A stretch of 64,000 nucleotides of DNA from an uncultured Clostridia bacterium (GCA_947631015.1 CANRJS010000009.1:1301-65300), one strand, 5' to 3'; shown: positions 40,130 through 61,125, counted from the first letter of the stretch. A program made the numbers and translations. The notes: generated by a model not told the origin, from the letters alone.

Positions 40130-40500
40130 CAAATCGCAGGAGCGGGCAAAAGCCCGCTCCTTTACAAATTTGCCGCGAGATTTTCGCAGGAAATCGCGCG
40201 GGCTTCGCCCGCGACCTATTTCCTGCGAAGCCGCCGGACAGAACAAGTTCTGCCGACGGCAAGCGCTGCGCTGCGCGTCGATTTTCCGCCTTCGGCGGAA
40301 AATCGACGCACGCTCCGCGAGAAGTATTTTTTTGCTTTAATTCGCAGAAAATCGGGACGTCGGCGCGAAGCGCCGAGGTCTGATGCGCCCGGTAGAGTGT
40401 TGGATGCGGTATAAGTTCGAGGGCGCATTATACACGCCGCCGGAAAAAATAAATTGAAATCTATTTCGCGCCTGTCGGTGCGAAACTCTGCGAGGCTTTT
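40130..40500. repeat. Family-2 modular palindromic intergenic repeat cluster
   Basis: Modules TCGGCGCGAAGCGCCGAGGTCTGA (40360) and GCGAAACTCTGCGAGG (40480) recur at other loci. Confidence 0.85.
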
Positions 40501-40511
40501 TTGACAAGCTG

Positions 40512-40546
40512 AAAGGCGCTCCGAAACGATGTTTCGGGGCGCCTTT
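40512..40546. terminator. Bidirectional terminator-like hairpin
   Basis: AAAGGCGCTCCGAAAC-gat-GTTTCGGGGCGCCTTT with T tract. Confidence 0.7.
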
Positions 40547-40568
40547 TTGTCTAACGTCTTGCGGCGGA

Positions 40569-41579
40569 TCATTCCCACTCCTCGCCCTGCTCCCACATAT
40601 ACTCCCGGTACTCGTTCACTCCGCGGAGTATGAGGCCGCGCACGTTGAGCCCGAACCGGCAGCGGTCGGCGCAGTAGCCGCAGCCGACGCATTTTGTAGC
40701 AAGGCGCATCTTTCCGCGCGTCTCCGCGTCGGTGTACGCACCGCGCGGCGCGATGTGGATAATATACCCCGCCCGCGCCGCGAACGGTATGTCGATACCG
40801 ACGGGGCACGGCATACACTCCCCGCAGCCCCGGCAGAGCATACCGGCGTTCATTTCGCGCTCGCCCTCTATCCTCTCGCGCAGGAGCTTTGTGGACCTCG
40901 GCGGCTTGCGCTCGAGCGCCGCCGTCTCATCTATCTGCCACGGGTACTCCGCGCCCCAGAGCGGGTGGACCTTCCCGACGTCGCGCAGGAACGCCATGGC
41001 GCACGCCGCCGAGCGGAGGAGCCCTCCCGCCATCGGCATGGACGCGAAGAAGTATACGCCGTGCTCTTCCGCGAGCGCCGCGAGCTCCAGCTCCTCCGGC
41101 GCGGAGAGACTGTTCAGAGGATACACGACGGCGTCAAAGAAGCCGCCGCATACCGCCTCACGCGCACACTCAAGCGACTCGGGGGCAAGCCCGAGGCTCC
41201 GCACTTTGCGGCTCCGCTTCGCCTCCGTCATTGCCTCGCGCAGTTCGTCCGACATGTCCTCCGGGCGGATGCCGCGCAGACAGAGGACGTCGACGTACTC
41301 CGTCCCGAGCGCGCGCAGGCTCTCGTCAAGACCGCGGCGGAAGTCCTCCGCGTCGGACGCGCGGACGTCGGCGAGAAGCAGGTACTCCGAGCGCTCGACA
41401 CCCTCGAGCCCTCGCGCGACGCGCTCCTCAATGCCGGGGTACTCGCGCGTCGCGGCGAACAGCCGCATGCCGCCGTCGTAGGCTCGCCTCACGAGAGCCG
41501 CGCCCTCGCGCTTTTCGAGCCGTCCGAGCCTCTTACAGTCGAGGCCGCCCTTCCCTCTCCTGAGCCCTTTCAACGTCAT
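40569..41579 (-). CDS. Aldo/keto reductase with C-terminal 4Fe-4S dicluster
   Basis: SLRALGTEYVDVL, MPMAGGLL, CRGCGECMPCPVGIDIP, CVGCGYCADRCRF. Confidence 0.85.
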   Translation of the reverse strand: MTLKGLRRGKGGLDCKRLGRLEKREGAALVRRAYDGGMRLFAATREYPGIEERVARGLEGVERSEYLLLADVRASDAEDFRRGLDESLRALGTEYVDVLCLRGIRPEDMSDELREAMTEAKRSRKVRSLGLAPESLECAREAVCGGFFDAVVYPLNSLSAPEELELAALAEEHGVYFFASMPMAGGLLRSAACAMAFLRDVGKVHPLWGAEYPWQIDETAALERKPPRSTKLLRERIEGEREMNAGMLCRGCGECMPCPVGIDIPFAARAGYIIHIAPRGAYTDAETRGKMRLATKCVGCGYCADRCRFGLNVRGLILRGVNEYREYMWEQGEEWE

Positions 41580-41650
41580 CTTCGTAACCTCCGCTTTGTC
41601 GGTGTGCAGGGTCTTACATTCAAGCGTATTCTACCACGTTTTGGCGCGCG

Positions 41651-43207
41651 CTACAAGCGTTTTACCGATTCAGCGCGCCGGGACGCGCTTTTTCCCACCG
41701 CGGTTCCCGCGCCGACGCCCTGCGCCGTTGCCGCCGCGAGGTAGCACACCGCCGCCGCCAGTACCCCTCCGGCGAGCGCCATGCCGTCCGGCAGGAGTTC
41801 CCCGAGGTAGAGATACGCGAGCCGCGCGACAAGTCCCGCGAGCACCGCCGACGCGAGCGGCGCGACAAACCATCTCCGCCACTCCGCCGCAAGTCCGCAT
41901 GTCGAGAGTACGAGCCGGAAGTTCAGCGCGAAGGTGAGCGCCGTGCTCGCGACGAACGCCGCGACGTAGCCCGCCATCCGCAGCCCCGGCAGGCGCACGA
42001 GCAGAACGACCATCGCAAGCTCCACGGCGTTGCCGAGAAGGAAGTTCACCGCCGAGATGTTCTGTTTTCCGAGTCCGTTGAGGATGCTCCCGCATATCGC
42101 CATGTATATCGAGAACGCCGTGCCAATCGCGATAGGCAGGAGGTATGCCGGGTCGACCCTCTGTCCGAACATATACCACCCGAGCGTGTCCCCGAGTGGC
42201 ACGAGCACCGCGAGCACCGGGAGTATGACAAAGCTCGTCGCGAGTATACAGCGTGAGACCTTGTGCCGCAGGTCCGCCATGTTGCCTGTGGCGAGGTTTT
42301 CCGAGAGTTTCGGCACCATCACGAGCCCGAGGCCGACGATGAGCGCGGAGGGAAGGTTAAAGAGCGGCATCGCCATCCCGAAGAGCACGCCGAACTCCCC
42401 GAGCGCCTGCGACTGCGTGAGTCCGCTCCGCACGAGCATCCTCGGGATAAGTATGACTATGAGCGAGGAGATGATGTTGTTTGCGAGGTTCGTGACGCTC
42501 ACCGGCGCGGCGATTGCGAGTATCCTCCGCGTCATGTGGCGGTCGCCCTCGCCGCCCTGCGGCAGGCGGGCGGACTTCCTGCGGTACACGAGGCGGAGAA
42601 AGCCGCTGCTTGCCACCTCGCACACGAGCATCCCCGCGGCGATGAGAGCGAGCATCCGGTCGTCCGGCTGGGGCAGGAACAGGCGGAGCAGTCCCACCAC
42701 TGCCGTCATGCGGACGACCTGCTCCATCAGGTCGCTGAAGGCGGGAGGGTTCACCTCCTTCGTGCCGTAGAGGTAGTTCTTATGTATGTTCTCTATGCCG
42801 GTAAAAAGTATCACCGGTATGAGGACGTACACCGCGAGGCGCGTGCGTTCGTCGCCGAGGAACCTCTCCGCTATCGGTGCGGCGAATATCCCCGCGCCGA
42901 CGCTTATCACGGCAAATATCCCGAAGAACGCCGCGAGCGCACGCCGGACGAGTCCGCGCAGGGCGGCGTAGTTCCGGAGCGCCATATACTCCGCCGCGAG
43001 GCGGCTCACCGCGACGCAGATACCGCTCGTCCCGAGCGCGAGCGCGAGCGAGTAGAACGGGAATATCAGCTGAAAGAGCCCCATCCCCTCCGCGCCTATC
43101 AGCCGCGAGAGCAGCATCCTGTACACGAACCCGAGGAGCTGTGAGAGAATGTTTGCCCCCGTCAATATAAAAGCGCCGTAGCGCACCGACCGCGTGTCTA
43201 TGCCCAT
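41651..43207 (-). CDS. spoVB: SpoVB/MurJ-like polysaccharide flippase (stage V sporulation protein B)
   Basis: GAFILTGANILSQLLGFVYRMLLSRLIGAEGMGLFQL; SD GGAGGT before ATG 43207; an upstream in-frame ATG at 43486 also has an SD. Confidence 0.85.
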   Translation of the reverse strand: MGIDTRSVRYGAFILTGANILSQLLGFVYRMLLSRLIGAEGMGLFQLIFPFYSLALALGTSGICVAVSRLAAEYMALRNYAALRGLVRRALAAFFGIFAVISVGAGIFAAPIAERFLGDERTRLAVYVLIPVILFTGIENIHKNYLYGTKEVNPPAFSDLMEQVVRMTAVVGLLRLFLPQPDDRMLALIAAGMLVCEVASSGFLRLVYRRKSARLPQGGEGDRHMTRRILAIAAPVSVTNLANNIISSLIVILIPRMLVRSGLTQSQALGEFGVLFGMAMPLFNLPSALIVGLGLVMVPKLSENLATGNMADLRHKVSRCILATSFVILPVLAVLVPLGDTLGWYMFGQRVDPAYLLPIAIGTAFSIYMAICGSILNGLGKQNISAVNFLLGNAVELAMVVLLVRLPGLRMAGYVAAFVASTALTFALNFRLVLSTCGLAAEWRRWFVAPLASAVLAGLVARLAYLYLGELLPDGMALAGGVLAAAVCYLAAATAQGVGAGTAVGKSASRRAESVKRL

Positions 43208-43512
43208 ACATACCTCCGCCGGATACCGATTATAGCTGCCGGAAGGCGAACCCGTGGTGCTCCACGCGGGCTCTTTTCGTCGCTTTTCTGTTTGTCGTCG
43301 CCGGTTTGCGTCAGCAAAACCGGCTCCTCCGCGCAGAAAATCATCCGAAAATAGTTCCGCGTGGAGTGCAGGCAGTTTTCGCCGAGCGGGTTTGCGTTCG
43401 GTGGGGAAAAGCCCGCCGGGAATACTGCCGTATTTCCAAGGGTTCCGGCGCCGCACGGGCGCAAACCCGCCGTCGAAAACCATCATGGGTTCACCTCTCG
43501 TCAGCTATATCC

Positions 43513-43542
43513 ATCTATATTTCCGCACGGAAGAATTTAGAA
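43513..43542 (-). promoter_or_regulatory. sigmaE-like promoter upstream of spoVB
   Basis: TTCTAAA-N14-AATATAGAT. Confidence 0.5.
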
Positions 43543-43549
43543 TTTGCGC

Positions 43550-45143
<1,594 letters not shown>

Positions 45144-45178
45144 CAGCTGTCATTTATAATCACGGTTCGCAAATGCGC

Positions 45179-45212
45179 CGGGGCGTACAGAGTTGTCTGT
45201 ACGCCCCGTTTT
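45179..45212 (+). terminator. Intrinsic terminator after abfA
   Basis: CGGGGCGTACAGA-gttg-TCTGTACGCCCCG-TTTT. Confidence 0.85.
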
Positions 45213-45307
45213 GCGGTCCAAAAAAAATTTTCAAAAATTTTGTCCCGAAAACGTCATGACCGGACATATACAGGCAGAACTAAAAACACCGCAAGGAGGT
45301 CATGAAA

Positions 45308-46393
45308 ATGTCAAAGAAGAAGCTCTTTTCGGCGCTCTGCCTTATACTCGCCGCGCTCGTCCTTCCCGCCTGCTCGGGCGGAGAAAAGGAGCCGGACGCC
45401 CTCACCTTCACCGTGCCCGAGACGTTCACCTCGGGAAGCGCCGGACAGTTTGAAGTCACCATGCTCGGGCTCACAAGCAGAAACCTGCTTATTTATCCCG
45501 GCATCGGCATAGAGCTCAAGATACAGAGCACCGACGGTCTCTACTATCTGTTTGGGGATACCGTCTGGGAGATGGGTTTGCTCCAAAGCGGAGAGCCCGG
45601 ACGGTACGGCACGGTCGAACGCGAGGAGGGCGGCGAGTGGGTCGACTGCGGCAGCGTTTTTGACGGAAGTACCACTTCAACGACGTCCATGGGATATGGG
45701 CTCTTTGTCCCGCCGCCGTGCGTTCACGGCCGCTTCATTCGTCCCTATGAGGCAGCCTACAACCATCAGTATATGCGGATAGAGCTCAGCGATACGCTCC
45801 CCGGCCGCTATCGCGCCCGCGTCGCCGTGCGGGAGTACATCCCGAGGTGGAACGAGGACAATATACCCTTCAAGCCGTTGAACGGCGAGGAACCGCTGTC
45901 CTTCGGCGGCACCACGGGCGAGGCGACGGATGAGATAGTCGTTGAATTCGACATACCGAGGTTCGGAAGCGGCCCGTTGGGCGTGCTGGGGTACTCCCTT
46001 TCCGACGAGAGCCGCACGGACTCGGTGATTGGCGACCGGGCGATAGCTTATTTCGATCTCCTGCTTCACGCCAACGGAGACATAAGGTACCTGCAAAACG
46101 ACTCCGTAAAGTTTGAATATCCGGACGGTGCGGGGTATTCGGAGGTGCCCGACGGCGTGGTTTGCGGCTTTGGCAGCGACGATTACTACAACTATCCGTA
46201 TCGGCATCTCCACGACAAAGACGGCATAGACTACACCACTCCCGACGTTGTTCCCATCGGCTCGATAATTTTCCGAGACTGGAACAGGGAGACGACCTAC
46301 CGCCTCTCGATGACCTTTACCGAGAACGAGGACGGCTCGGGCGAAGCCTACACCCTCTACCTGTATCTGAACTTTGCGGAAGCGGTCGAGTAA
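45308..46393 (+). CDS. Hypothetical lipoprotein
   Basis: Basic N-terminus, hydrophobic core, lipobox LPAC; SD AGGAGG; no family recognised. Confidence 0.8.
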   Translation: MSKKKLFSALCLILAALVLPACSGGEKEPDALTFTVPETFTSGSAGQFEVTMLGLTSRNLLIYPGIGIELKIQSTDGLYYLFGDTVWEMGLLQSGEPGRYGTVEREEGGEWVDCGSVFDGSTTSTTSMGYGLFVPPPCVHGRFIRPYEAAYNHQYMRIELSDTLPGRYRARVAVREYIPRWNEDNIPFKPLNGEEPLSFGGTTGEATDEIVVEFDIPRFGSGPLGVLGYSLSDESRTDSVIGDRAIAYFDLLLHANGDIRYLQNDSVKFEYPDGAGYSEVPDGVVCGFGSDDYYNYPYRHLHDKDGIDYTTPDVVPIGSIIFRDWNRETTYRLSMTFTENEDGSGEAYTLYLYLNFAEAVE

Positions 46394-46464
46394 CACTCTC
46401 TGGCATTTCGCAGGCTCCCGCAACAAATAACGGACGGTGCGATAAATCGCACCGTCCGTTGCAG

Positions 46465-46680
46465 CCTCGCAGAGTTTCGCCGCTTTAGCGGCGAAACAAA
46501 GTTAAATCATTTTCGGCGGCGGCGTGTACGTCGCCGAAAATACCTCTCGCGTAGCGCGCGTCGAAGGCGGCAAAGCCGTCGAGGCGCGAAGCGGAGCGCT
46601 CGCCGTCGGCAAGGCTACGCCTTGTCCGACGGCTTCGGCGCGAAAGGGTGCGCAGCGAAGCGAGCACATTTCGCGCCGAA
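46465..46680. repeat. Family-2 repeat cluster
   Basis: CCTCGCAGAGTTTCGC start; 46465-46600 is a near-colinear inverted copy of 49620-49755. Confidence 0.85.
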
Positions 46681-46682
46681 TG

Positions 46683-48506
46683 TTACTCGACGGTGACGCT
46701 CTTCGCGAGGTTCCTCGGCTTGTCGATGTCGCAGCCCTTGAGAGACGCGATGTAGTAGCTGAGAAGCTGGAGCGGTATCACGCTGAGGCTCGCCGCAAAC
46801 AGCGGCTCGCAGTCCGGGATGGTGAGCGGCGTCACGCCCTCTCCGGATATGTCCCGCGCGGACTCGCAGACTATCGCCGCCACCGACGCGCCGCGCGCCG
46901 AGACCTCCTTGATGTTCGAGAGCGTCTTTTCAAAGAGACGGTTGTCGCTTATGACGGCTATCACCGGCGTGCCGTCCACTATGAGCGAGATGGGACCGTG
47001 CTTCAGCTCGCCCGCGGCATACGCCTCGCTCATCGTGTAGGATATTTCCTTGAGCTTCAGCGCGCCCTCGAGCGACACGGCGTAGTCGATACCGCGCCCG
47101 ATGAAGAATACGTGCTCCGCCGAGAACCAGCGGCTCGCAAGCTGCTGCGTCTGCTCCTTTATGCCGAGCGTCTTTTCTATCAGCCCCGGCAGCTCCTCGA
47201 CCGCCGCAACGAGCTCGCCGTATCGCTCGGGCGTCACCGTTCCGCGCGCCTCCGCCATGCGGATGCCGAGCAGGTAGAGCGCCGCGAGCTGTGTGGAATA
47301 AGCCTTCGTCGTCGCGACGGCTATCTCCGGCCCCGCCCATGTGTAGAGGCTCATGTCAGCCTCCTTTGCAATAGAGCTGCCGACGACGTTGACGACGGCG
47401 AGCGTCCTTGCGCCGAGGCGCTTCGCCTCGCGCAGAGCTGCGCGGCTGTCCGCCGTCTCGCCCGACTGGCTGATGATTATCACAAGCGTCCTCTCGTCCA
47501 CTAGCGGCGACTGGTAGCGGAACTCACTTGCAAGCTGCGTCAGCACCGGTATGTGCAGCAGCGTCTCGAGCACCCGCGCCGCCGCGCACCCGACGTAGTA
47601 CGCCGAGCCGCACGCCGCTATGTATATCCTGTCAAAGCTCCGTATGTCCTCGTCCGAGAGCGGTATCTCAAGCTCCACTCTGCCGTTCTTTATGCGCGGC
47701 GAGATGGTCGCCTGCACGGCGGATGGCTGCTCCATTATCTCCTTGAGCATGAAGTGCTCGTAGCCGCCCTTCTCCGCCGCCTGCACGTCCCAGTCTATGT
47801 GGGACGGGGTCTTCTTCACCCGCCGGGAGTGCTGGTCATAGACCTCCACCGACGCGCCGGTGAGAATGGCTATCTCCTTATCCTCTATGTAGTACACCGA
47901 GCGGGTGTGCTCGAGTATCGCGGTGACGTCGCTTGCGATGAAGTTCTCGTCCTCGCCGAGGCCGATGATAAGCGGCGAGTCGTGGCGCATGGCGACGAGC
48001 GTGTCCGGGTGATCCGCGACGAGGATGCCGAGCGCATAGCTCCCCTCTAGCACCGACGCGACGCGCTCCGCCGCCTCGAGGAGGTCGCCCTTGTAGTAGT
48101 GCTCGAAGAGGTGCGCGACGACCTCGGTGTCGGTCTCGCTCACGAACGTCACGCCCTGCGACGTGAGGTACTCCTTGAGCTCCATGTAGTTTTCGATTAT
48201 GCCGTTGTGAACGACGGCGGTGCGGCCGGTGCCGCTCGTCTGCGGGTGGGAGTTTATGTCGGACGGCCTGCCGTGCGTCGACCAGCGTGTGTGTCCGATA
48301 CCCGTCGAGCCCACCGGGAAAGCTCCGTTATTCGTCTTTTCCACGAGCACGCGGAGGCGTCCCTTCGCCTTCTCGACCTCTATCCTATCGCCGTTCCATA
48401 CCGCGACGCCCGCCGAGTCGTAGCCCCGGTACTCGAGCTTTTTCAGTCCCTCGAGCAGTATCGGCGTCGCCGCTTTTCTACCGACATATCCGACTATTCC
48501 GCACAT
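46683..48506 (-). CDS. glmS: Glutamine-fructose-6-phosphate aminotransferase
   Basis: MCGIVG, LEYRGYDSAG, GHTRWSTHG, VATTKAY, PRNLAKSVTVE. Confidence 0.99.
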   Translation of the reverse strand: MCGIVGYVGRKAATPILLEGLKKLEYRGYDSAGVAVWNGDRIEVEKAKGRLRVLVEKTNNGAFPVGSTGIGHTRWSTHGRPSDINSHPQTSGTGRTAVVHNGIIENYMELKEYLTSQGVTFVSETDTEVVAHLFEHYYKGDLLEAAERVASVLEGSYALGILVADHPDTLVAMRHDSPLIIGLGEDENFIASDVTAILEHTRSVYYIEDKEIAILTGASVEVYDQHSRRVKKTPSHIDWDVQAAEKGGYEHFMLKEIMEQPSAVQATISPRIKNGRVELEIPLSDEDIRSFDRIYIAACGSAYYVGCAAARVLETLLHIPVLTQLASEFRYQSPLVDERTLVIIISQSGETADSRAALREAKRLGARTLAVVNVVGSSIAKEADMSLYTWAGPEIAVATTKAYSTQLAALYLLGIRMAEARGTVTPERYGELVAAVEELPGLIEKTLGIKEQTQQLASRWFSAEHVFFIGRGIDYAVSLEGALKLKEISYTMSEAYAAGELKHGPISLIVDGTPVIAVISDNRLFEKTLSNIKEVSARGASVAAIVCESARDISGEGVTPLTIPDCEPLFAASLSVIPLQLLSYYIASLKGCDIDKPRNLAKSVTVE

Positions 48507-49319: not shown

Positions 49320-49526
49320 ATGACCGACAGAATTGCTCTGATTCTTTCTATAATCGGCGCGCTGAACTGGGGTCTTATAGGCATTTTCAAGTTTGATCTC
49401 GTGGCGTGGATCTGCGGCGGCCAGACTGCGGCGATAAGCCGCGTGATATACACGCTGGTCGGGCTTGCGGGTATATGGTGTATCTCGCTGCTCTTCCGCA
49501 AGCGTTCCGCGATAAGCGAAAACTAG
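49320..49526 (+). CDS. DUF378 family small membrane protein
   Basis: IIGALNWGLIGIFKFDLVA...SRVIYTLVGLAG. Confidence 0.92.
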   Translation: MTDRIALILSIIGALNWGLIGIFKFDLVAWICGGQTAAISRVIYTLVGLAGIWCISLLFRKRSAISEN

Positions 49527-49529: not shown

Positions 49530-50075
49530 TCGCGGGAAATGGGTGAAGGAGCGGGCAAAGCCCGCTCCTTCACCCATTTCCCGCGAGGGCACCGGACAGA
49601 GCCGAGCTCTGCCGGTGCCTTGCGCTCCGCTACGCGCCTCGACGGCTTCACCGTCTTCGACGCACGCTCCGCGAGAGGTATTTTTCCCGACGTACACGCC
49701 GCCGGGAAAAATAATTTGACTTTATTTCGCGCCGGAGGCGCGAAACTCTGCGAGGCGCCAATCAGACCTCGGCGCGAAGCGCCGAGGTCTGTTGAGATTT
49801 TCAAGCGGCGCTCTGCGCCGCTTCTGCCCAACAATGCGCTCTCAAGTTAGGCAATATTCGCGGAGCAAATATTGCGGGCGAAAGCAGCAGCGCGTCGGGT
49901 GAAGAACGGGTTTGCGTCCTCGCTGTTCGCGTGGAAGCGGCTTTGCTCCTTGCGCGGTGAAACTCGGGGAGGTCTTTGATGCGCATACGGAGCCGGCCAA
50001 AATGGCCGGCTCCGTCGTTGCGTTTATTTTTGCCGCGCGAACAGGTGCGGGCACGCGGCTTTGCCGCGGAAGTCT
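49530..50075. repeat. Family-2 repeat cluster
   Basis: 27-bp perfect stem 49530-49586; modules at 49740, 49762 and about 49840-49885 shared with other loci. Confidence 0.88.
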
Positions 50076-51294: not shown

Positions 51295-51640
51295 TCTCAG
51301 CCTCGCAGAGTTCGCCGCGTAAGCGGCGAACAAATTCCAATTAGTAAATTTCGGCAGCGTGAATGCGCCCTTCGACTTGCTGCGCATCAAAACTTTCTAC
51401 CGGGCGCATCAGACCTCGGCGCTTCGCGCCGACGTCCCGACTTTGTACGAACCGTAGGGTGAAATTTACACCTCTCGCGGAGCGTGCGTCGAAGACGGCG
51501 AAGCCGTCTCCGCGCCTGTTCGCGCGGTCGATGTTGCCACAGGCAACATCGCGCAGGGGCGATTCATTCGCCCCGAGCATTTCAATCGGAAGGGTTCCCA
51601 CGCGGTCGGCGACCGCGTGGGAATTACAAAGCCCGCGCGA
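51295..51640. repeat. Family-2 repeat cluster
   Basis: Modules at 51301, 51409-51432 and 51510-51622. Confidence 0.88.
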
Positions 51641-51642
51641 TT

Positions 51643-52215
51643 TCACGCGAGAATTTCGCCCCACGCTCCGAGCGGTTTCCCGTCCCAGCCGAAGTATTCG
51701 CTGTTCACCGTCCGCACCGGCTTTATCGCGCCGGCGCGCTCCGCGACGCTCCGCGTCTCGTCCGCGAGCGCCTCGTCGTACAGCACGTTCCGTATCCGGC
51801 AGAACATCACCGCACCGTCCCCGCGCGGGAAGAACTCCTTCACCTCGAGCTCGAAGTTTACCGGGCTAGCGGTGAGCACCGGCACGTCGAGTACGCGCCC
51901 GTGCTCGGTCTCAAGCGGGATCTCCGCCTTCCTCGGGTCGTAGCCGCCGATGTTGCCGAGCCTGTCCGCGAGCGGAAGCAGAGCCTCGGTGACGAGGTTT
52001 GCGGAAAACCTCCGCGTCTCGCGTATGCGGTCAAGCGTCAGCTTCGGTTCGCCTATCGACGCGACGAACCCCAGCGCGTCCTCCTCATAGTCCCAGTAGT
52101 AGGAGAACCATGTGAAAAGCGCGAAGTTCGGCGCGCCGTCCTCCTTGTATGTCCCGTAGAGCATAAGCGACTGCGGGCAGAAGTCGTTCGTCGCCTCGCG
52201 GCATATCTTACTCAT
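51643..52215 (-). CDS. Flavin reductase-like FMN-binding protein
   Basis: YGTYKEDGAPNFALFTW, FSANLVTE, SPVNFELEV. Confidence 0.85.
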   Translation of the reverse strand: MSKICREATNDFCPQSLMLYGTYKEDGAPNFALFTWFSYYWDYEEDALGFVASIGEPKLTLDRIRETRRFSANLVTEALLPLADRLGNIGGYDPRKAEIPLETEHGRVLDVPVLTASPVNFELEVKEFFPRGDGAVMFCRIRNVLYDEALADETRSVAERAGAIKPVRTVNSEYFGWDGKPLGAWGEILA

Positions 52216-52785: not shown

Positions 52786-52823
52786 TCAGTCACAAACCAA
52801 ATTGCAAACGGAGGAAAAACGGG

Positions 52824-53678: not shown

Positions 53679-53809
53679 CCCTGTACGGAATTTCGGGAAA
53701 CACGAACGCGGGGCGGTACACAGTACCGTCCCGCGCAGTTTATACGCCTTGTATCCATACCGCATCCTACTGTCTCCGCCGCCGAAGGCGGCAACCGCAG
53801 TTTTACTTA

Positions 53810-54320
53810 GCTCAAAGTCGGACAATATTTGCGAAGCAAATATTGCTAGCGAGGGCTGTAAAATGTCGGATAAAGAATTGGTGCGCGCCCTCGCGGTTCG
53901 CAGCGGTTGAAGTTAGCGGCAAAGCCGCTAACTTCGCGCAGGGAAGTCATATCAATGTCCGGCTTTGCCCGCGAAGCGGGTAAAGCTCACGAGGGCTGAA
54001 TATGTACCGATGAAGAATTAGTGGGCGCCCTCGTGTTTGCCCTGAGCATTTCAATCAAAGGGGCCCCCAAACGGCGCAAAGCGCCGTTTGGGGATAGCGC
54101 ATCAGACCTCGGCGCTTCGCGCCGAGGTTCCGACTTTCAGAGAATCCGGGGTGCCCTCGAACCTATGCCGCATCTGGCGTTCTACGCCGCCTACGGCTGC
54201 GCCGCGCCGGTTCGCGCGGTTGAAGTTGGCGGCAAAGCCGCCAACTTCGTGCAGGCGGAATTCATTTCCGCCGAGCATTTAATTCAAGGGGCCCCCAACG
54301 CTCCGCCGGAGCGTTGGGGC
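53810..54320. repeat. Family-2 repeat cluster
   Basis: 53810-54090 is largely colinear with 56090-56360; module A at 54202-54320. Confidence 0.9.
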
Positions 54321-54775
54321 ATATTGAATCCGTGCATGAACCCGTCGAGCGCGGGGCTCGCTACGTCCCCCGCTACGACCTTGTCCTTGTATATGAGCAG
54401 CGTTATGCGCACCCCCTCCTCGCCGGACGGATGGTTAAGTATGGGGTAGCTGTAACGCTTCACCTCGCGCCCCACGAGGTATCGCAGGTCGAGACCCTGT
54501 TCTATCTGCATACGGTTGTAGCGCTCGTAGACCTCGTCAAATAACTCCGGGATGAGCACCGTGTCCTCACACTCGTCCGCTCCGTCGGTCTCCCAGCCGA
54601 AGGAGCGGATGAACGTAAGTCGATCCTCACGCGTCTTCACGCCGGAGTATCCGGGTATGGCGCTCCCCGCGCGGAAGACGCTCACGAGCATTATTATGAG
54701 GATCACCGCCGCGCCGCACGCCGCAAAGAGCAGAACAAGCTGCTTTCTTGTAAATTTTGCCGAAATAATAAACAA
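54284..54775 (-). CDS. DUF4830-like protein with N-terminal membrane anchor
   Basis: FIRSFGWE, YERYNRMQIEQGLDL, GREVKRYSYPILNHP, VVAGDV...GFMHGF. Confidence 0.8.
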   Translation of the reverse strand: MFIISAKFTRKQLVLLFAACGAAVILIIMLVSVFRAGSAIPGYSGVKTREDRLTFIRSFGWETDGADECEDTVLIPELFDEVYERYNRMQIEQGLDLRYLVGREVKRYSYPILNHPSGEEGVRITLLIYKDKVVAGDVASPALDGFMHGFNMPQRSGGALGAP

Positions 54776-54825
54776 AGATACTCCCCCTCATGTTCCGCTT
54801 CGCTAAAATATATGCCCCGCACCGC

Positions 54826-54879
54826 TTGAAAATCACGCCGCGATGCTGTATAATCTTGTTAAACAGGAAAACGCTTGCC
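54826..54879 (+). promoter_or_regulatory. sigmaA promoter plus LacI/CcpA-like site
   Basis: TTGAAA-N17-TATAAT (54826-54854); GGAAAACGCTTGCC at 54866-54879. Confidence 0.6.
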
Positions 54880-55023
54880 ACATCGGAACAGGCGTCGGGC
54901 GAGGAACCGTCCGCCGGCTGACACAGCCGGTCACCGACCCGCCGCCCGCCTGCACACGTTTTTCCCGGCAGCATTTTTCGCGGACGACCGCGATAAAACA
55001 AATTTCGAAGGGAGTAATGCACT

Positions 55024-55986
55024 ATGAAACTCGGCGTTCTTACCGTACCGCTTTACGGCATGAGCCTTGAAGATGCTCTCAAGTATCTCCACGGCCTCGG
55101 CGTCCAGGCGGTCGAGCTCGGCGGCGGCTGCTATCCGGGCAACACCCACACTCTGCCCTACATCACGGGCGAGAAGCCGGTAAGCGAGCTCAAGGCTCTG
55201 CTCGAGAAGTACGACCTCACCCTCTCCGCCGTCGCGGCGCAGGGCAACTACATCCATCCGAACAAGGAGCAGGCCGCGCAGTTCCAGAAAGGTCTGGAGG
55301 ACAGCATCCTCCTCGCCGAAAAGATGGGCTGCGACACCGTCAACGTCTTCTCCGGTTGCCCGGGCGACTGCCCCGAGTCGAAGAACCCGAACTGGGTCAC
55401 CTGCCCCTGGCCGCCCGAGTACCTCGAAGTGCTCGACTGGCAGTGGAACGAAGTCCTCATCCCCTACTGGAAGAAGCAGGTCGCGTTTGCGCGCGAGCAC
55501 GGCGTCACCAAGCTCGCGTTTGAGATGCACCCCGGCTTCCTCGTCTACAACACCGAGACGCTGCTGAAGCTCCGTCACGCCGTCGGCCCGGAGATAGGCG
55601 CGAACTTCGACCCGAGCCACCTCGTATGGCAGGGCATGAACATTGTTGACGCGATAACCATGCTCGGCAATGAGGGCGCTATCTTCCACTTCCACGCGAA
55701 GGACACCCGCATCGACGAGATAAACACCCGCCGTATCGGCGTTCTCGACACAAAGCACTACGGCGGCAACGACCGCGCGTGGGACTTCCGCTCGGTCGGC
55801 TACGGCCACGACAACTTCTTCTGGAAGGAAGTCGTAAGCGCCCTCCAGCGCGTAGGCTACGACGGGACGCTCTCGATAGAGCATGAGGACAGCCGCATGA
55901 GCGTCAAGGAAGGTCTCGAGAAGGCCATCGCGGTGCTCAAGGACGTTCTGGTGTTCGAGAAGCCCGGCGAGATGTGGTGGGCCTGA
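55024..55986 (+). CDS. Sugar phosphate isomerase/epimerase family TIM-barrel protein
   Basis: FEMHPG, NFDPSHL, FHAKD, SIEHED. Confidence 0.92.
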   Translation: MKLGVLTVPLYGMSLEDALKYLHGLGVQAVELGGGCYPGNTHTLPYITGEKPVSELKALLEKYDLTLSAVAAQGNYIHPNKEQAAQFQKGLEDSILLAEKMGCDTVNVFSGCPGDCPESKNPNWVTCPWPPEYLEVLDWQWNEVLIPYWKKQVAFAREHGVTKLAFEMHPGFLVYNTETLLKLRHAVGPEIGANFDPSHLVWQGMNIVDAITMLGNEGAIFHFHAKDTRIDEINTRRIGVLDTKHYGGNDRAWDFRSVGYGHDNFFWKEVVSALQRVGYDGTLSIEHEDSRMSVKEGLEKAIAVLKDVLVFEKPGEMWWA

Positions 55987-56016
55987 TAGCACATTGTCCG
56001 TTATGAAACAAATGAG

Positions 56017-56044
56017 CGGCGCGGTCTATGACCGCGCCGTTTAT
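56017..56044 (+). terminator. Intrinsic terminator-like hairpin
   Basis: CGGCGCGGTC-tat-GACCGCGCCG-TTTAT. Confidence 0.7.
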
Positions 56045-56495
56045 CGCGGCGAAAAGGTGCGCAGCGAAGTCTGCGCTCCGCCCTACAATGCGCTCAAAGT
56101 TGGGCGATATTCGCGAAGCGAATATTGCGGGCGAAAGCAGTGGAGCATCGGATGAAGAACAGGTTCGCGCTTTCGCGGTTCGCAGCGGTTGAAGTTGGCG
56201 GCAAAGCCGCCAACTTCGCGCAGGGCAAATTTTACACTGTGTTTGGCTTTGCCCGCGAAGCGGGCAAAGCTCACGAGGGCTGAATATGTTCCGATGAAGA
56301 ATCGGTAGGCGCCCTCGTGTTTGCCCCGAGCATTTAAATCATAGAGGTCCCAAACGGCGTGAAACGCCGCTCCGCGCCTGTTCGCGCGGTTAAATTCGGC
56401 GCAAAGCGCCGAATTTGCGCAGGCGGAATTCATTTCCGCCGAGCATTTTAATTAAAGGGGTCCCCAAACGGCGCAGAGCGCCGTTTGGGGAATCC
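56045..56495. repeat. Family-2 repeat cluster
   Basis: Modules at 56093, 56173, 56245-56340 and 56372-56490. Confidence 0.9.
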
Positions 56496-56577
56496 CTGCA
56501 CCTCCGGGCAGTAAAAGTCGGGATTTCCGACCCCGAAAGTGATAATATGTGAGTGTCAGCGGAAAGGAGACGGTAGG

Positions 56578-57390
56578 ATGAACCTTGCGGACGGCATGGC
56601 GGAGGCGCTCGCGTACATCGAGGCGCACCTCGACGGCGAGCTCAGCATATCGGAGGCCGCGGCGCGCGCGTATCTCTCCGAGTTCTACTTTCAGCGCATA
56701 TTCGGCGCGCTCTGCGGCATGACGGTGGGCGAGTACATACGCGGCCGCCGCCTGACCCTCGCCGCGCGTGAGCTCGCCGCGTCGGACGCGAGGGTCATCG
56801 ACGTCGCGCTGAAGTACGGCTGGTCCTCGCCGGACAGCTTCGCCCGCGCGTTTGCGCGGTTCCACGGCGTCTCTCCGTCCGCGGCAAAGGCGGGCGCGGC
56901 GCTCAGGTCGCTCGCTCCGCTGAAAATAAAACTCACATTGGAGGGCGGAAACATGACAGATTACAGGATAGTACACAAGGAGGCGTTCAGCCTCGTCGGA
57001 ACCGGGCGCAGGTTCTCCGCGGAGACAAGCTATGCGGAGATACCGAAGTTCTGGGACGAGTTCCTTGCCTCGCCCGAGAAGCCGGTCCACGGGATGTTCG
57101 GTGTTTGTCTCGACACGGGGATAAACGAGAGCGGGATGTTCGACTATCTGATAGCCGATATCTACGAGCCGTGGCGGGACGTTCCGGCGGGGTGCTCGGT
57201 GCAGAGCTTCGCCGCCGGCGACTGGGCGGTGTTTCCCTGCACGCTCGAGACGCTTCAGGACACGAACACGAGGATGTGGAGCGAATGGCTCCCGAGCGCC
57301 CGCGACTACCGCCTGCGGGACGGCTTCGACCTCGAGTGCTACCTCCCCGGCGGCCGCGTAGAGCTGTGGCTGCCGGTCGAGAAGGCGTAG
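56578..57390 (+). CDS. AraC family regulator with C-terminal GyrI-like effector-binding domain
   Basis: YIEAHL, EYIRGRRLTLAA, DVALKYGWSSPDSFARAF; C-terminal WSEWLPS...DLECY. Confidence 0.93.
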   Translation: MNLADGMAEALAYIEAHLDGELSISEAAARAYLSEFYFQRIFGALCGMTVGEYIRGRRLTLAARELAASDARVIDVALKYGWSSPDSFARAFARFHGVSPSAAKAGAALRSLAPLKIKLTLEGGNMTDYRIVHKEAFSLVGTGRRFSAETSYAEIPKFWDEFLASPEKPVHGMFGVCLDTGINESGMFDYLIADIYEPWRDVPAGCSVQSFAAGDWAVFPCTLETLQDTNTRMWSEWLPSARDYRLRDGFDLECYLPGGRVELWLPVEKA

Positions 57391-57413
57391 GGTGCACAGA
57401 TTACGTACAACAC

Positions 57414-57458
57414 AAAGCGCGGCACGGAGCGGTTTTCCGCTCCGTGCCGCGCTTTTTC
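57414..57458. terminator. Bidirectional terminator
   Basis: AAAGCGCGGCACGGAGCGG-tttt-CCGCTCCGTGCCGCGCTTT with flanking T tract. Confidence 0.85.
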
Positions 57459-57475
57459 TGTCAGAAAATCTGCCC

Positions 57476-57937
57476 TCAATTTACTTTTTCCGTTTTTGTG
57501 ACGACAAATCCGTTTTTCAGATACAGCTTTATCGCATTCTCGTTCCACTCGGCGACATGTATGGTTATGGGTTTGTCGGAATATTCCCTGATGCGGCGGA
57601 TCGCCCACAGCAGTATCTTTTTTCCGTAACCTCGGTTCTGAAACGCCCGATTTACAAACAAATCGTCTATTTCCGTGCCATAGCATCCCACGCCGCCGAC
57701 TATCTCTCCGTCCTGCACAAGCAAAAATATATCGGCCGCTTTTTCTCTTATCTGCTCAATGCCCGAATAGAAGTTATACGGCCGCACGTCCAACGCCTCG
57801 CGCATCTCGTAAAAGCATTCGTTGTATATGCGTTCGTACTGTGAATAGTACTCCTCACAAAACGGGATCATTTGGACCGTATCGGTTTTGTGTCCCTCTC
57901 CCGAGTACTGCATCTCATAAGCAAAGAAACTTTTCAT
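57476..57937 (-). CDS. GNAT acetyltransferase, low GC
   Basis: IDDLFVNRAFQNRGYGKKIL, NENAIKLYLKNGF; SD GGAGG before MKSFF. Confidence 0.9.
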   Translation of the reverse strand: MKSFFAYEMQYSGEGHKTDTVQMIPFCEEYYSQYERIYNECFYEMREALDVRPYNFYSGIEQIREKAADIFLLVQDGEIVGGVGCYGTEIDDLFVNRAFQNRGYGKKILLWAIRRIREYSDKPITIHVAEWNENAIKLYLKNGFVVTKTEKVN

Positions 57938-58034
57938 GGCTCCTCCAAACATATTCGGGTCTTGCGGGCGGTCATCCGATCCCATGTCAAGACCGCCGTG
58001 TCTCCGTCTACCACGCTATAACGCCCGCCGCAGG

Positions 58035-58471
58035 CAGAGCTCCGCCCTGTCCGACGCCTCGCAGAGTTTCGCGCCTTCGCGCGAAATAGATTAATATCGC
58101 TTTTTCCGGCGGCGTGTGGCGTGTACGGTGAAATTTACGCATCTCGTCCAGCGCGTTTCGAGTAAAGCGCCGCAGGCGCTCCCGCGCCTGTTCGCGCGGT
58201 TGAAGTTGTCGGCTTTGCCGCCAACTTCGCGGAGCCGGAATTCATTTCCGGCGAGCATTTCAATCTAAAGGGCTCCCACGCGGTCGCTGACCGCGTGGGA
58301 ATACGTCGATTTTCCGCCGAAGGCGGAAAACTCGGCGCGTAGCGGAGCGCTTGCTGTCGGCAAGGCTACGCCTTGTCCGACAGTTTCACTTGGAATTGCG
58401 CCCGCGCAATTCCAAGTGAACTTCTCGCGGGAAACAGGTTGCGGGCGAAGCCCGCAACCTGTTTCCCGCGA
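58035..58471. repeat. Family-2 repeat cluster
   Basis: Modules at 58057, 58182-58300 and 58348; 22-bp perfect stem 58425-58471. Confidence 0.9.
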
Positions 58472-59455
58472 CTAGCACAGCCGCGTCGGGCAGTCGCGTC
58501 CCTCCGCCATCGCGCAGATGCCGTATATCCCGCACTCGACCATGCTCCTCGTCGCGGCGTCGGTGTAGAACGCCATGTGCGGCGTCATGACGACGTTGCG
58601 GAACTGCCGCAGGTAGAACAGGTTGCGGTTCGCAAGGATGTCTATGCGGTGGTCGGAGTGAATAACTCCCTCCTCGCCCTCGAGCGCGTCCAGTCCAAGC
58701 GCTCCTATCTTCTCGGTCTCTATGCCCTCAACGAGGGCTTCGGTCTCGGTGAGCTCTCCGCGCGCGCAGTTGATTATCACGACGCCGTCCTTCATCTTCG
58801 CTATCGCAGCACGGTCGATGATATGATATGTCGAGTCGAGGAGCGGCATGTGAAGCGTGATTATGTCGCTCTCGCGAAAGAGCGTGTCGCGGTCGACGTA
58901 CCGCCCGAGCTTCTTTGCGTCGTCGTTTTCGCGGACATCGAAGCAGAGCATCCTGCACCCGAAGCCGGAGAGGTTCCGCATCACCTGCGTGCCGATGCTG
59001 CCCGTTCCCATAATTCCGACGGTGAGCTCGCGCATCTCGCGTCCCTGAAGTCCGTTCAGCGCGAAGTCGTTCACCTGACCGCGCCAGAGCGCCTGCTTGT
59101 AGTTGCGCAGGCACATCAGCATAAGCATTACGGTGAAATCCGCGACGCCGTTCGGCGCGTAGTTCGCGTTGCAGATGCCGATGCCGAGCTTCTCCGCGCA
59201 CGTCAGATCTATGTGATCGTAACCTATCGTGCGCGTCGACAGGAAGCGCACTCCGTTTTCGTACCACTTCTCAAGCAGCTCGGCATTTATTTTGCCCTGG
59301 CCGAGCGTAGTGACGCCGTCCACGCTCTCGGTCATTTCGACGTTCTGCATGCTCGGGACGGCAGAAGTCATCACCAGCGAAACGCCGTACTCCAGCGCCG
59401 CGCTCTCCATTATTTCGCGTTCATCGGGCCGAACCTCATAGGCAAGTATTTTCAT
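58472..59455 (-). CDS. D-isomer-specific 2-hydroxyacid dehydrogenase (D-lactate dehydrogenase-like)
   Basis: RTIGYDHIDL, GIMGTGSIG, INCARG, LDALEGE, TPHMAFYT. Confidence 0.93.
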   Translation of the reverse strand: MKILAYEVRPDEREIMESAALEYGVSLVMTSAVPSMQNVEMTESVDGVTTLGQGKINAELLEKWYENGVRFLSTRTIGYDHIDLTCAEKLGIGICNANYAPNGVADFTVMLMLMCLRNYKQALWRGQVNDFALNGLQGREMRELTVGIMGTGSIGTQVMRNLSGFGCRMLCFDVRENDDAKKLGRYVDRDTLFRESDIITLHMPLLDSTYHIIDRAAIAKMKDGVVIINCARGELTETEALVEGIETEKIGALGLDALEGEEGVIHSDHRIDILANRNLFYLRQFRNVVMTPHMAFYTDAATRSMVECGIYGICAMAEGRDCPTRLC

Positions 59456-59540
59456 GGTATTCCTCCGTCAGGTTTTCCGCATGCTTTCAAGTTCCTATTA
59501 TCGTCTTATATCCCGACCCGCCGTTCGCACTCGGAACGGC

Positions 59541-60272
59541 TCAGGCGGTGTAGCCCCCGTCCACCGGAAGGACGGCGCCGTTGATGAACGCCGCGTCCTC
59601 CGAGGCGAGGAAGAAAATAGCTTTCGCGACCTCCTCTGGTTGTCCTATCCTGCCGAGCGGCGTCGCGCGGACGACCTCGAGGCGCGCCTCCGCGTCCACA
59701 TCGGCGTTCATGTCGGTGTCGATGAACCCCGGCGCGACGCAGTTCACCCGCACGCCGTTCGGGCCGAGCTCGCGCGCGAGGCTCTGCGTGAGCGATATGA
59801 CAGCCGCCTTGCTCGCGGCGTAAGCCGCTTCGCAGGACGCGCCGCGCAGTCCCCACATCGACGAGACGGTGACGATGCTCCCGCCGTGGCGGCGCATCAT
59901 GCCGTCCGCCGCCGCGCGACAGCACTCCGAGACGCCGAGAAGGTTCACCGCAAGTATCCGCTCCCAATCGGCGCGGCCGGTCGCGGCGTGCTCCTTTATG
60001 AGCGATATGCCGGCGTTTGCGACGAGCACGTCTATGTGCCCGAGCTCCGCCGCGACGCGCTCCGCCGCGCCTTCGCCCGCGCCGGGGACGGCGAGGTCGG
60101 CGCGCACCGGCATCGCAACGCCGCCGTGCTCGCCTATCACGCGGCAGAGGCGCACCGCGCTCTCCTCGGACGTGTTGTACCCCACCGCGACGGCGTATCC
60201 CGCCGCCGCGAACTCCAGCACCGCCGCAAGCCCTATACCCTTCGACCCTCCGGTCACAAACGCAGTTTTCAT
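59541..60272 (-). CDS. Short-chain dehydrogenase, FabG-like
   Basis: VTGGSKGIG, ANAGI, YAASKAA, NCVAPGFIDT. Confidence 0.93.
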   Translation of the reverse strand: MKTAFVTGGSKGIGLAAVLEFAAAGYAVAVGYNTSEESAVRLCRVIGEHGGVAMPVRADLAVPGAGEGAAERVAAELGHIDVLVANAGISLIKEHAATGRADWERILAVNLLGVSECCRAAADGMMRRHGGSIVTVSSMWGLRGASCEAAYAASKAAVISLTQSLARELGPNGVRVNCVAPGFIDTDMNADVDAEARLEVVRATPLGRIGQPEEVAKAIFFLASEDAAFINGAVLPVDGGYTA

Positions 60273-60320
60273 AGTGTCCTCCAAAGAAATATTCGCGGAA
60301 AATCGTGCGGGCTTCGCAAT

Positions 60321-60480
60321 TCCCAAACGCTCCGGCGGAGCGTTTGGGAGCCCTTCCGATTGAAATGCTCGCTCCGAATGAATCGGAGCTGCGCGAAGCT
60401 GCCTGCGGCAACTTCAACCGCGCGAACAGGCGCGGGGTCGCCGCTTACGCGGCGAATCGCAGTTGCGGCTCACCCGCGCG
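60321..60480. repeat. Family-2 repeat cluster (module A inverted)
   Basis: 60321-60435 is a reverse-complement copy of module A. Confidence 0.85.
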
Positions 60481-60532
60481 GAAATATCCTCCGATAGTAT
60501 ATAAGCACCGCCGGAGCGGTGCTTATACATTC

Positions 60533-60607
60533 TGGTACGCCCGATTGGAATCGAACCAACGCACCCGGCTCCGGAGGCCGGTGCTCTATCCACTGAGCTA
60601 CGGGCGC
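60533..60607 (-). tRNA. tRNA-Arg(CCG)
   Basis: GCGCCCGTAGCTCAGTGGATAGAGCACCGGC-CTCCGGA-GCCGG...GGTTCGATTCC...CGTACCA; cloverleaf with encoded CCA. Confidence 0.97.
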
Positions 60608-60646
60608 TTCTTATACAAAGGAGCACCTTCATAGGTGCTCCTTTGT

Positions 60647-60723
60647 TGGCGCGCTTGAAGGGACTCGAACCCCTGACCTACTGGTTCGTAGCCAGTCACT
60701 CTATCCAGCTGAGCTACAAGCGC
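60647..60723 (-). tRNA. tRNA-Arg(ACG)
   Basis: GCGCTTGTAGCTCAGCTGGATAGAG...CTACGAA...GGTTCGAGTCC...GCGCCA. Confidence 0.97.
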
Positions 60724-60751
60724 AACTGCGACTCTTTTCAGCCGCTCAATT

Positions 60752-60780
60752 ATGATAGCACATTCTGCCCGCGATTGCAA
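60752..60780 (-). promoter_or_regulatory. sigmaA promoter of tRNA pair
   Basis: TTGCAA-N17-TATCAT with extended TG. Confidence 0.7.
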
Positions 60781-60814
60781 GGACTTTTTTCCTTTTCGCA
60801 AAAATTTTTTATTG

Positions 60815-61125
60815 TCCCAAACGGCGCGGCACGCCGTTTGGGAACCCTTTGATTAAAATGCTCGGGGAAAATGAATTGCCCCTGCGCGAAGTTAGCGGCG
60901 CAGCCGCTAACTTCAACCGCGCGAACAGGCGCGGCACGGCGCGCCGTTTGGGGACCCTTCCGATTAAAATGCTCGGGGCAAACACGAGGGCGTCTACATA
61001 TTCCGCACCGAAACATATTCAGCCCTCGTGAGCTTTGCCCGCTTCGCGGGCAAAGCCGGACACTGTACATAATTGCCTGCGCGAAGCCCACGGCCTTGCC
61101 GTGGGCTTCCACCGCGCAAACAGGG
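60815..61125. repeat. Family-2 repeat cluster (modules A and B inverted)
   Basis: 60815-60934 is module A reversed; 60962-61057 is module B reversed. Confidence 0.9.

Follow-up and report, generated by a model that had tools for sequence, protein, structure and literature searches.

BOX elements of Streptococcus pneumoniae are composites of boxA and boxC with a variable number of boxB units between them, the BOX-type repeats of S. suis join seven subsequences in particular permutations, and the terminator-like SPRITE repeat occurs preferentially where coding sequences have their 3′ ends (PMC3049150). PMC3733652 places GTAG- and CGTC-tagged repetitive palindromes predominantly in gamma- and alpha-Proteobacteria; the host considered here belongs to a Clostridia lineage. 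We analysed a stretch of 64,000 nucleotides (nt) of DNA from an uncultured Clostridia bacterium (GCA_947631015.1, CANRJS010000009.1:1301-65300; hereafter the window), in which a preliminary description had noticed nine intergenic clusters of palindromic modules between about 40 and 61 kb. These clusters are composite interspersed hairpin repeats that stand outside any named family and are new in the resources searched. Their stems vary between copies yet remain complementary, whereas some loops, linkers and one bulged T are constant.

Comparison of the window with itself recovered nine repeat clusters at the nine sites first noticed. The repeat-covered intervals are 40138-40497, 46429-46650, 49530-49930 (plus 50025-50050), 51298-51657, 53810-54322, 56070-56491, 58055-58471, 60286-60454 and 60815-61115, together ~3.3 kb or ~15% of the 21-kb stretch, in good agreement with the earlier estimate of about 3 kb. 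Three motifs recur in the window far beyond chance: TCAGACCTCGGCGC was matched five times (0.07 expected), CCTCGCAGAGTTTCGC four times (0.18 expected) and GCTCACGAGGGCTGAATATGT three times (0.00 expected). When two whole clusters were folded as single strands and compared with shuffled sequence, the z-scores were -13.2 and -12.4. A covariance model of the core unit, module A, built from 52 copies, identified nine copies in the window, six short and three long (~200 nt). Six lie on the plus strand (51510-51625, 53889-54096, 54202-54323, 56173-56371, 56372-56493 and 58182-58303) and three on the minus strand (60318-60435, 60812-60934 and 60941-61129). Self-comparison, motif counts and the model agree with the claim of nine clusters sharing modules, and neither the self-comparison nor the model scan placed the family in positions 1-40000, where none had been seen before. 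The motif positions quoted in the preliminary description were found where it had placed them, except that the D copy at 51301 escaped a search allowing two mismatches because one base is deleted there.

As had also been described, every cluster lies downstream of a 3′ end: all nine adjoin that of a gene, a tRNA or rpsR. Between 40.1 and 61.2 kb a cluster is present in every non-divergent intergenic gap of at least 290 nt and in no divergent gap, and eight comparable gaps of the first 40 kb are all free of the family. For this strongly regional distribution, a younger acquisition of the first 40 kb or a local spread of the repeats are candidate explanations.

Module A comprises four hairpins (H1 to H4) in ~120 nt. 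H1, CCGCGC-CTGTTC-GCGCGG, is almost invariant. H2 has a variable stem and a loop of three bases, H3 a variable stem and a conserved ATTCATT loop, and H4 a variable inner stem within CCCA..TGGG; a conserved single-stranded segment, GAGCATTTYAATY..AAGGG, separates H3 from H4. The three-base loops of H2 and H4 are of arbitrary sequence, as in DNA palindromes. In the long form of A (~200 nt), H3 is replaced by a branched insertion of ~85 nt. What had been listed as a separate module B coincides exactly with this insertion, and B is therefore an expansion of hairpin 3 within long A.

Pairing in module A is maintained through compensatory change. In an alignment of 75 copies fitted to the model, a procedure that favours structure, 97.9% of pair cells held standard pairs and changes on both sides were seen at 26 of 37 pairs. 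None of 500 shuffles reached the observed pairing values, and pairing fell to 33-46% when the partner column was slid by one to three positions. An independent MAFFT alignment gave compensated changes at 22 of the 37 pairs. The hairpin of another module, P, is 98% paired, with covariation at 7 of 13 pairs and an invariant unpaired T on its 3′ arm. No strand is singled out by any of the three signals that we compared. Among mismatched pairs in A, read in the chosen orientation, G.U outnumbered A.C by 40 to 25 (p = 0.08, not significant). In tandem gene contexts, 16 copies of A were sense and 13 antisense, and relative to local GC skew, leading and lagging copies numbered 29 and 32, which is no replication-strand bias; orthologous and tandem copies are non-independent, so that these orientation counts are rough.

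Where clusters are collinear, the rate of change in orthologous copies is two to three times lower than that at third codon positions. Identity between the window and the related locus L059 was 97.3% for clusters, 93.0% for third codon positions and 90.7% for the remaining intergenic DNA (Fisher p 2e-7 and 9e-10). For clusters 2 and 4, the corresponding values in the comparison with L007 were 94.0, 88.0 and 89.9% (Fisher p 4e-5 and 0.018). That orthologous copies change more slowly than silent sites speaks against decaying junk, and judged from these alignments the slow change points to constraint rather than to purely selfish turnover. Paired and unpaired positions change at an equal rate.

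The composites follow two grammars, built from about ten types of hairpin module in all. For type I, seeded searches and the alignment of 12 composites together with flanking sequence gave the collinear order D1-X-[C]-hp0-[A]-[hp0]-P-[Q]-T, in which brackets mark optional modules. Reading from the unique 5′ flank, GCCTCGCAGAG leads into the D1 hairpin, which is followed by the X hairpin (at times with C inserted) and CTCTCGCGGAGCGTGC. GTCGA then introduces hp0, after which come an optional A, an optional second hp0, GCGTAGCGGAGCGC with the P hairpin, and an optional Q. The composite closes with the long palindrome T (CGCGGGAAA...TTTCCCGCGA), whose core resembles a terminator, and in the unique flank beyond T a gene stop codon usually lies within 0-10 nt. 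Type II reads E-A-long-[C]-A. Type I comprises clusters 1, 2, 3a, 4 and 7, type II clusters 5, 6 and 9, and cluster 8 consists of half a T and one A. The D1 and T ends were fixed in the 12 aligned composites, and any internal module may be absent. Composites are 220-520 nt long, and the two whole clusters folded as chains of local hairpins. The preliminary description had the modules in different order and orientation, with module shuffling. Their order proved fixed; the reversed modules are real, as parts of whole composites on the minus strand, and it is the module content of the composites and the sequence variants of individual hairpins that are shuffled.

None of the 12 aligned composites showed a target-site duplication, a real terminal inverted repeat or a conserved flanking target sequence. 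Their ends share only a weak motif of ~6 nt, CCTCGC, seen as CCTCGCAGAG at the D1 end and as CCTCGCGGGA on the reverse strand of the T end. The hp0 module reads CGTC-GA-TTTTCCGCC-GAAG-GGCGGAAAA, and in full copies CGTC is itself paired (GTCGA...TCGAC). P is preceded by GCGTAGCG, with GTAG ~12 nt from the P stem. The clusters are composed as follows.

Cluster 1, 40138..40497, minus strand: type I, D1-X'-C-X''-hp0-P-T, without A; between the convergent genes for an M32 carboxypeptidase (end 40118) and an aldo-keto reductase (end 40569).
Cluster 2, 46462..46682, plus strand: type I, D1-X-hp0-P-W, abutting the GlmS stop codon at 46683.
Cluster 3a, 49530..49757, minus strand: type I, reading T-P-hp0-X-D1 along the plus strand; T begins 3 nt past the DUF378 stop codon at 49526.
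Cluster 3b, 49761..50050, plus strand: fragments, with a C-core hairpin at 49761-49791 and a copy of module E at 49844-49930.
Cluster 3b remnant, 50025-50050, minus strand: H1-like.
Cluster 4, 51298..51657, plus strand: type I, D1-X'-C-X''-hp0-A (51510-51625)-T' (51626-51657); T', which has a terminator-like score on the minus strand, overlaps the stop of the flavin-reductase gene at 51643.
Cluster 5, 53810..54323, plus strand: type II, with E at 53813-53894, A-long with the B expansion at 53889-54096, the 3′ half of C at 54097-54137 and A at 54202-54323.
Cluster 6, 56056..56493, plus strand: W'-E (56092-56183)-A-long (56173-56371)-A (56372-56493), between the end of an AP_endonuc_2 gene and the start of an AraC-family gene.
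Cluster 7, 58055..58471, plus strand: the fullest type I, D1-X-hp0-A (58182-58303)-hp0 (58303-58332)-P (58333-58386)-Q (58387-58422)-T (58423-58471); T directly adjoins the stop of the 2-hydroxyacid dehydrogenase gene at 58472.
Cluster 8, 60286..60454, minus strand: half a T (60290-60317), A (60318-60435, minus strand) and a short hairpin, in the spacer from the 3′ end of tRNA-Arg(ccg) to the start of an SDR gene.
Cluster 9, 60812..61129, minus strand: one A (60812-60934) and one A-long carrying the B expansion (60941-61129), both on the minus strand; the rpsR terminator (61166-61138) lies on one side and a promoter-like site of tRNA-Arg(acg) (60780-60752) on the other.

The flanks are ordinary chromosomal genes: those for the M32 carboxypeptidase and aldo-keto reductase, glmS, the DUF378 gene, a MetE-like gene, flavin reductase, marR, degV, a DUF4830 gene, a sugar-phosphate isomerase-like gene, an araC-type regulator, an acetyltransferase, the 2-hydroxyacid dehydrogenase, the SDR, two tRNA-Arg and the rpsF-ssb-rpsR operon. 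The acetyltransferase is a real GNAT gene on the minus strand (57476-57985, supported by Pfam matches on orthologous contigs) and not the plus-strand open reading frame (ORF) 57392-57844, which puts cluster 7 between tandem genes of the minus strand, T being next to the stop of the upstream one. At cluster 5, the last dozen or so codons and the TGA stop of the DUF4830 gene (54284-54775, minus strand) are encoded by hairpin 4 of A. In its ortholog on L025, homology with the end of this gene ceases at GGCATATTGAATCC, and the repeat content beyond is wholly different (window 54284-54330).

Copies of A within a genome are diverged: their median identity is ~0.72, and pairs that reach 95% are few. 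Unrelated, non-orthologous sites have composites of 200-370 nt in common, at 88-91% identity. The stems fall into a few recurrent variants per hairpin (H3 has five major ones), and the major variants are all found in four of four genomes. Among 75 copies of A we counted 70 distinct combinations of H2, H3 and H4; mutual information between H3 and H4 and between H2 and H4 was the same as in shuffled data, and that between the adjacent H2 and H3 was slightly raised. Copies exchange hairpin-sized cassettes and recombine, so that the shared hairpin variants come in near-random combination.

Strain and species comparisons make such exchange directly visible. In a set of ten strain-level contigs with an identical neighbouring protein, one group of strains carries, in the second A of cluster 6, a different H2 variant and the B expansion in place of H2 and H3; H1, the 3′ part and the flanks are untouched, and the strains are ~96% identical. 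Locus L060 is without 53915-54209, a deletion with both ends in A copies. The A at 54202 differs from that of a strain of 96% identity by six compensated double changes, all in H2 and H3. Cluster 2 is collinear with its ortholog on L007, whereas cluster 1 differs from its ortholog on L010 by four separate hairpin-sized indels, including a module A missing from the window. The module sets of clusters 5 and 8 differ in the nearest metagenome-assembled genome (MAG), and the ortholog of cluster 8 on L025 carries ~290 nt of additional A-type units. At an orthologous site by tRNA-Pro, two species have a single A and a third has E, A-long and A. The strain comparisons revealed only replacements, cassette swaps and nested indels, and no empty and filled sites with clean ends. 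Copies fixed across the clade were to have told against the preliminary description; we saw polymorphism between close relatives. Its suggestion of a mobile element is not supported: target-site duplications, terminal inverted repeats, a conserved target and clean empty and filled sites were looked for without success, ~0.5 Mb yielded neither an HUH gene nor another multi-copy gene, and near-identical copies are few. One contig (L001, ERZ27249118, coverage 2.3x), otherwise identical to the window, lacks 42 bases in frame within the araC-type gene (57254-57295), which may be a strain difference or an effect of low-coverage assembly.

The family is confined to one lineage. A degenerate A pattern searched against one genome per GTDB species matched 55 stretches, 50 of them in three rabbit-gut MAGs labelled 'uncultured Clostridia bacterium' (Lapin-008__bin30, Lapin-003-2__bin20 and Lapin-004__bin9). 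The assemblies of these MAGs comprise GCA_947585215.1, GCA_947593925.1 and CANRIN01. The module A model matches none of the remaining five, which are singletons from unrelated phyla and hence chance matches. Since contigs of two of the three MAGs share 91-95% identity with the window, it comes from a close relative. In 455 kb (the window plus related loci), the A model gave ~90 matches above 40 bits, and it gave none in five control loci. The DNA of the clade that we sampled amounts to ~0.5 Mb, or ~10-15% of each related genome, with genes in the loci called by a simple third-position G+C rule and ARAGORN; it held no multi-copy ORF family, transposase-like or other, and no ORF with a credible HUH...Y motif. 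The gene for an HUH transposase (RAYT/TnpA) flanked by the modules, for which a search had been suggested, did not turn up in it. No Rfam family matched the clusters (only two tRNAs reached the gathering score), and the E-value mode returned nothing beyond generic hairpin noise. Two degenerate patterns had zero matches in JGI metagenome contigs and one had zero in IMG/VR viral contigs, and blastn of two whole clusters matched nothing among PLSDB plasmids or INPHARED phages. The claim that the family is undescribed therefore stood in all of these resources. ωRNA/HEARO, bridge RNA, group II intron domains, T-box and attC were considered and dropped for want of a model match or of a defining neighbour gene.

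The position of the copies relative to transcription units is recurrent. Of 67 scorable cases, 48 have the 3′ side of A facing the 3′ end of a gene or tRNA, a tRNA in 17 of these, and gene bodies are free of copies. No sigma-70-type promoter-like site was detected inside any cluster. A promoter on the reverse strand of A driving downstream tRNAs found no support in a consensus scan. Several copies are distal to the terminator of their neighbour, as in the order rpsR terminator, A-long, A, tRNA promoter-like site, and the order tRNA, palindromic terminator, A recurs at no fewer than eight different tRNA loci. At such loci A often lies 0-5 nt from a perfect A/T-tract palindrome after the tRNA gene that includes the CCA end of the tRNA. 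This arrangement was seen beside tRNAs for Val, Pro-cgg, Pro-tgg, Met, Gly, Lys, Ser and Arg (loci L003, L004, L012, L016, L017, L024, L028, L042, L043, L045, L049 and L051, and the window at 60318-60934), and the tRNA terminator palindromes themselves covary between loci. On L016 (6859-7343) and L040 (1-252), A, the terminator and ~28 nt of the 3′ end of tRNA-Val are duplicated beside an intact tRNA-Val; ARAGORN calls one tRNA only, and the duplicate resembles a short tandem duplication or an att-like remnant.

We consider it probable, at roughly 0.6, that the family is a lineage-restricted set of non-coding composite hairpin repeats of the BOX/BIME/REP kind (bacterial interspersed mosaic elements and repetitive extragenic palindromes), kept under structural constraint, with the following origin, persistence and predicted function. 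The spread of the family would date back to the ancestor of these species, where it would have moved as a non-autonomous element by means of an enzyme absent from the sampled DNA. Its present persistence would be mostly vertical descent, together with ectopic gene conversion, unequal crossing-over and hairpin-sized deletions. When copies pair, the conserved H1 and GAGCATTT segments may anchor a heteroduplex from which each mismatched palindrome would extrude as a loop and be repaired as one unit. Such unit-wise repair would account for exchange at the grain of single hairpins, also across the 7-nt linker between H2 and H3, which is too short for independent homologous crossovers. The arrays may be kept as predicted useful stable hairpins at the ends of transcription units, with T as a putative two-way terminator and the remaining modules putatively blocking read-through or protecting 3′ ends on either strand, and they may in addition or instead be a binding site for a protein such as gyrase or a nucleoid protein.

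Several points weigh against this account. The composites shared at 88-91% identity and the few A pairs at 95% or above leave room for ongoing transposition, and a partner gene or recent identical insertions could lie outside the sampled part of each genome. The conserved loops and linkers (CTGTTC, ATTCATT and GAGCATTTYAATY) go beyond a generic hairpin role and imply a specific partner, and none was found in the sampled DNA. The slow change of the clusters could partly reflect conversion of both lineages to one pool instead of host selection. Finally, only one copy of T in the window passed a simple terminator scan.

Some of the same data would also fit a functional structured RNA. Module A, perhaps with the whole composite, would then be a 3′ untranslated cis element or a small RNA with many paralogs, the long form carrying an expansion domain. 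The very strong covariation, the conserved loops, internal loops and single-stranded linkers, a domain of variable size within one stem as in many RNAs, and the slower change than at silent sites all suit an RNA, as does the slight excess of G.U, although the latter is not significant. We nevertheless regard such an RNA as unlikely, since Rfam holds no match, copies lie in both orientations to flanking transcription (16 vs 13), the clusters have no promoter-like site and several copies stand beyond the terminator of their neighbour. The variable three-base loops of H2 and H4 are typical of DNA palindromes, and dozens of copies per genome with freely recombined stems fit an RNA poorly as well. 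Movement as single-stranded DNA is the other explanation of hairpin-built units that have neither target-site duplications nor terminal inverted repeats: the modules would be ends or relics of a REP/REPIN-RAYT or IS200/IS605-type system, still moved in trans by an HUH tyrosine transposase. IS608 TnpA recognises an extrahelical T in a hairpin, and the covarying P hairpin has such an invariant T, preceded by GCGTAGCG. In addition, hp0 is laid out like a CGTC-tagged REP (CGTC, a 9-bp stem opening with A/T pairs and a 4-nt loop), and the composites at 88-91% identity between unrelated sites could be traces of movement. Yet CGTC is paired in full hp0 copies and is no unpaired tag, the flanking target sequence is not conserved, replication-strand bias is absent and inverted doublets are not the rule. 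With a median copy identity of ~0.72 within genomes, and with neither an HUH-motif ORF nor a multi-copy ORF family in the ~0.5 Mb, continued mobilisation of this kind appears improbable to us.

That the composites are short, non-coding, dispersed and intergenic, with the weak motif CCTCGCAGAG/CCTCGCGGGA common to both ends, is what an ordinary family of miniature inverted-repeat transposable elements (MITEs) mobilised by a DDE transposase would also present. We find this scarcely credible, because 0 of 12 aligned composites had a target-site duplication and none a real terminal inverted repeat, because the fold is a chain of local hairpins instead of a single long fold-back, and because no transposase-like multi-copy gene was found in the ~0.5 Mb. 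The conserved loops, linkers and bulged T might instead mark the hairpins as substrates of a structure-specific enzyme that would both spread composites and swap single cassettes between copies by folded-strand recombination, an attC-like logic applied to non-coding modules, or A might be a novel functional RNA that exists in many copies and has an expansion domain; we regard this as a long shot. If true, it would add a new class of element in gut Clostridia and not one more REP-like repeat, and a partner enzyme, if it exists, could provide a new structure-specific tool for DNA or RNA.

On the account that we prefer, of composite hairpin repeats under structural constraint, the family is a clear case of repeats evolving as a pool of interchangeable hairpin cassettes, which bears on whether REP-like repeats are parasites or useful to their host. 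It occupies most of the long 3′ spacers of the 21-kb stretch, where annotation would otherwise call spurious ORFs or misplace gene ends, and its strain variation could serve as a typing marker for this uncultured rabbit-gut lineage. Other repeats in the window are separate. A second family that shares no module with the first (13866-14256, 17743-18037 and 18245-18504; e.g. CCCTGCGTTACTTTTTGCTCGCGCAAAAAGTAGCC... and GCGGGGAAGCCCCGC...) is present in two intergenic gaps of the first 40 kb, where its copies, direct and inverted, are 97% and 84-88% identical. Direct repeats at 10968-13599, 71-75% identical, correspond to two adjacent paralogous genes that were grouped with other ORFs of the window and the loci as one protein family; they are coding and belong to no repeat element.

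Comparison with known systems separates the family from several of them by architecture. An integron attC array was rejected: housekeeping genes on both strands (glmS, rpsR and tRNAs) flank the clusters, no integrase domain turned up among the proteins scanned in 38.5-64 kb, and no RYYYAAC/GTTRRRY pair frames the hairpins. MITEs are set apart by the lack of target-site duplications and real terminal inverted repeats in the 12 composites. Hairpins are present as in IS200/IS605-type elements, without a conserved flanking target or a strand bias (29 vs 32). The bcr1-bcr18 repeats of the Bacillus cereus group are likewise Firmicute intergenic repeats, of 100-400 nt, with a conserved predicted secondary structure and compensatory changes. 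Of these, bcr1 has MITE features and a TTTAT duplication, and we know of no modular grammar of the present kind described for bcr repeats.

The BIME/REP-like character proposed in the preliminary description is borne out, in that the family is hairpin-built, extragenic, located at 3′ ends, high in copy number and limited to one lineage. REP and BIME sequences of enterobacteria are likewise G+C-rich extragenic palindromes between unidirectional and convergent genes and downstream of coding regions, their mosaics have conserved linkers with stems heterogeneous within families, and the layout of hp0 resembles that of CGTC-tagged REPs (PMC3733652). In BIMEs, however, REPs alternate in orientation, whereas the modules here are collinear on one strand; the present units are also far more varied and longer, forming composites of 220-520 nt, and no RAYT gene was seen in the ~0.5 Mb. 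REPIN-RAYT systems are similar in being non-autonomous hairpin repeats that persist for long by vertical inheritance as within-genome sequence populations, and a REPIN is an inverted REP doublet around one master sequence (PMC3116915, PMC3337134). Here there is no doublet rule and no master sequence, several hairpin variants are combined near-randomly, and A is mostly single or in head-to-tail tandem, with few head-to-head pairs such as that on L036 (3011-3131, minus strand, and 3193-3317, plus strand).

BOX differs in having three module types instead of about ten, and in the similarity noted between its terminal repeats and ISSpn2, no insertion sequence with matching ends being known here. 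The core of the present family is moreover a conserved four-hairpin unit with an expansion variant, whose stems covary and recombine between copies. All traits of a BOX-type composite are nonetheless present, which makes the family one of this kind in its architecture. Like BOX and SPRITE of S. pneumoniae and the S. suis BOX-type repeats, these are Firmicute composites with fixed bounding modules and optional or repeated internal ones; as in BOX, the modules fold locally and can be gained or lost without disturbing the others, and the composites vary in length between strains and cluster downstream of genes, outside coding sequences. SPRITE, a terminator-like palindrome at the 3′ ends of coding sequences, is the counterpart of module T. 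By this analogy of architecture, the nearest analogue in kind is pneumococcal BOX with SPRITE, together with the BOX-type repeats of S. suis.

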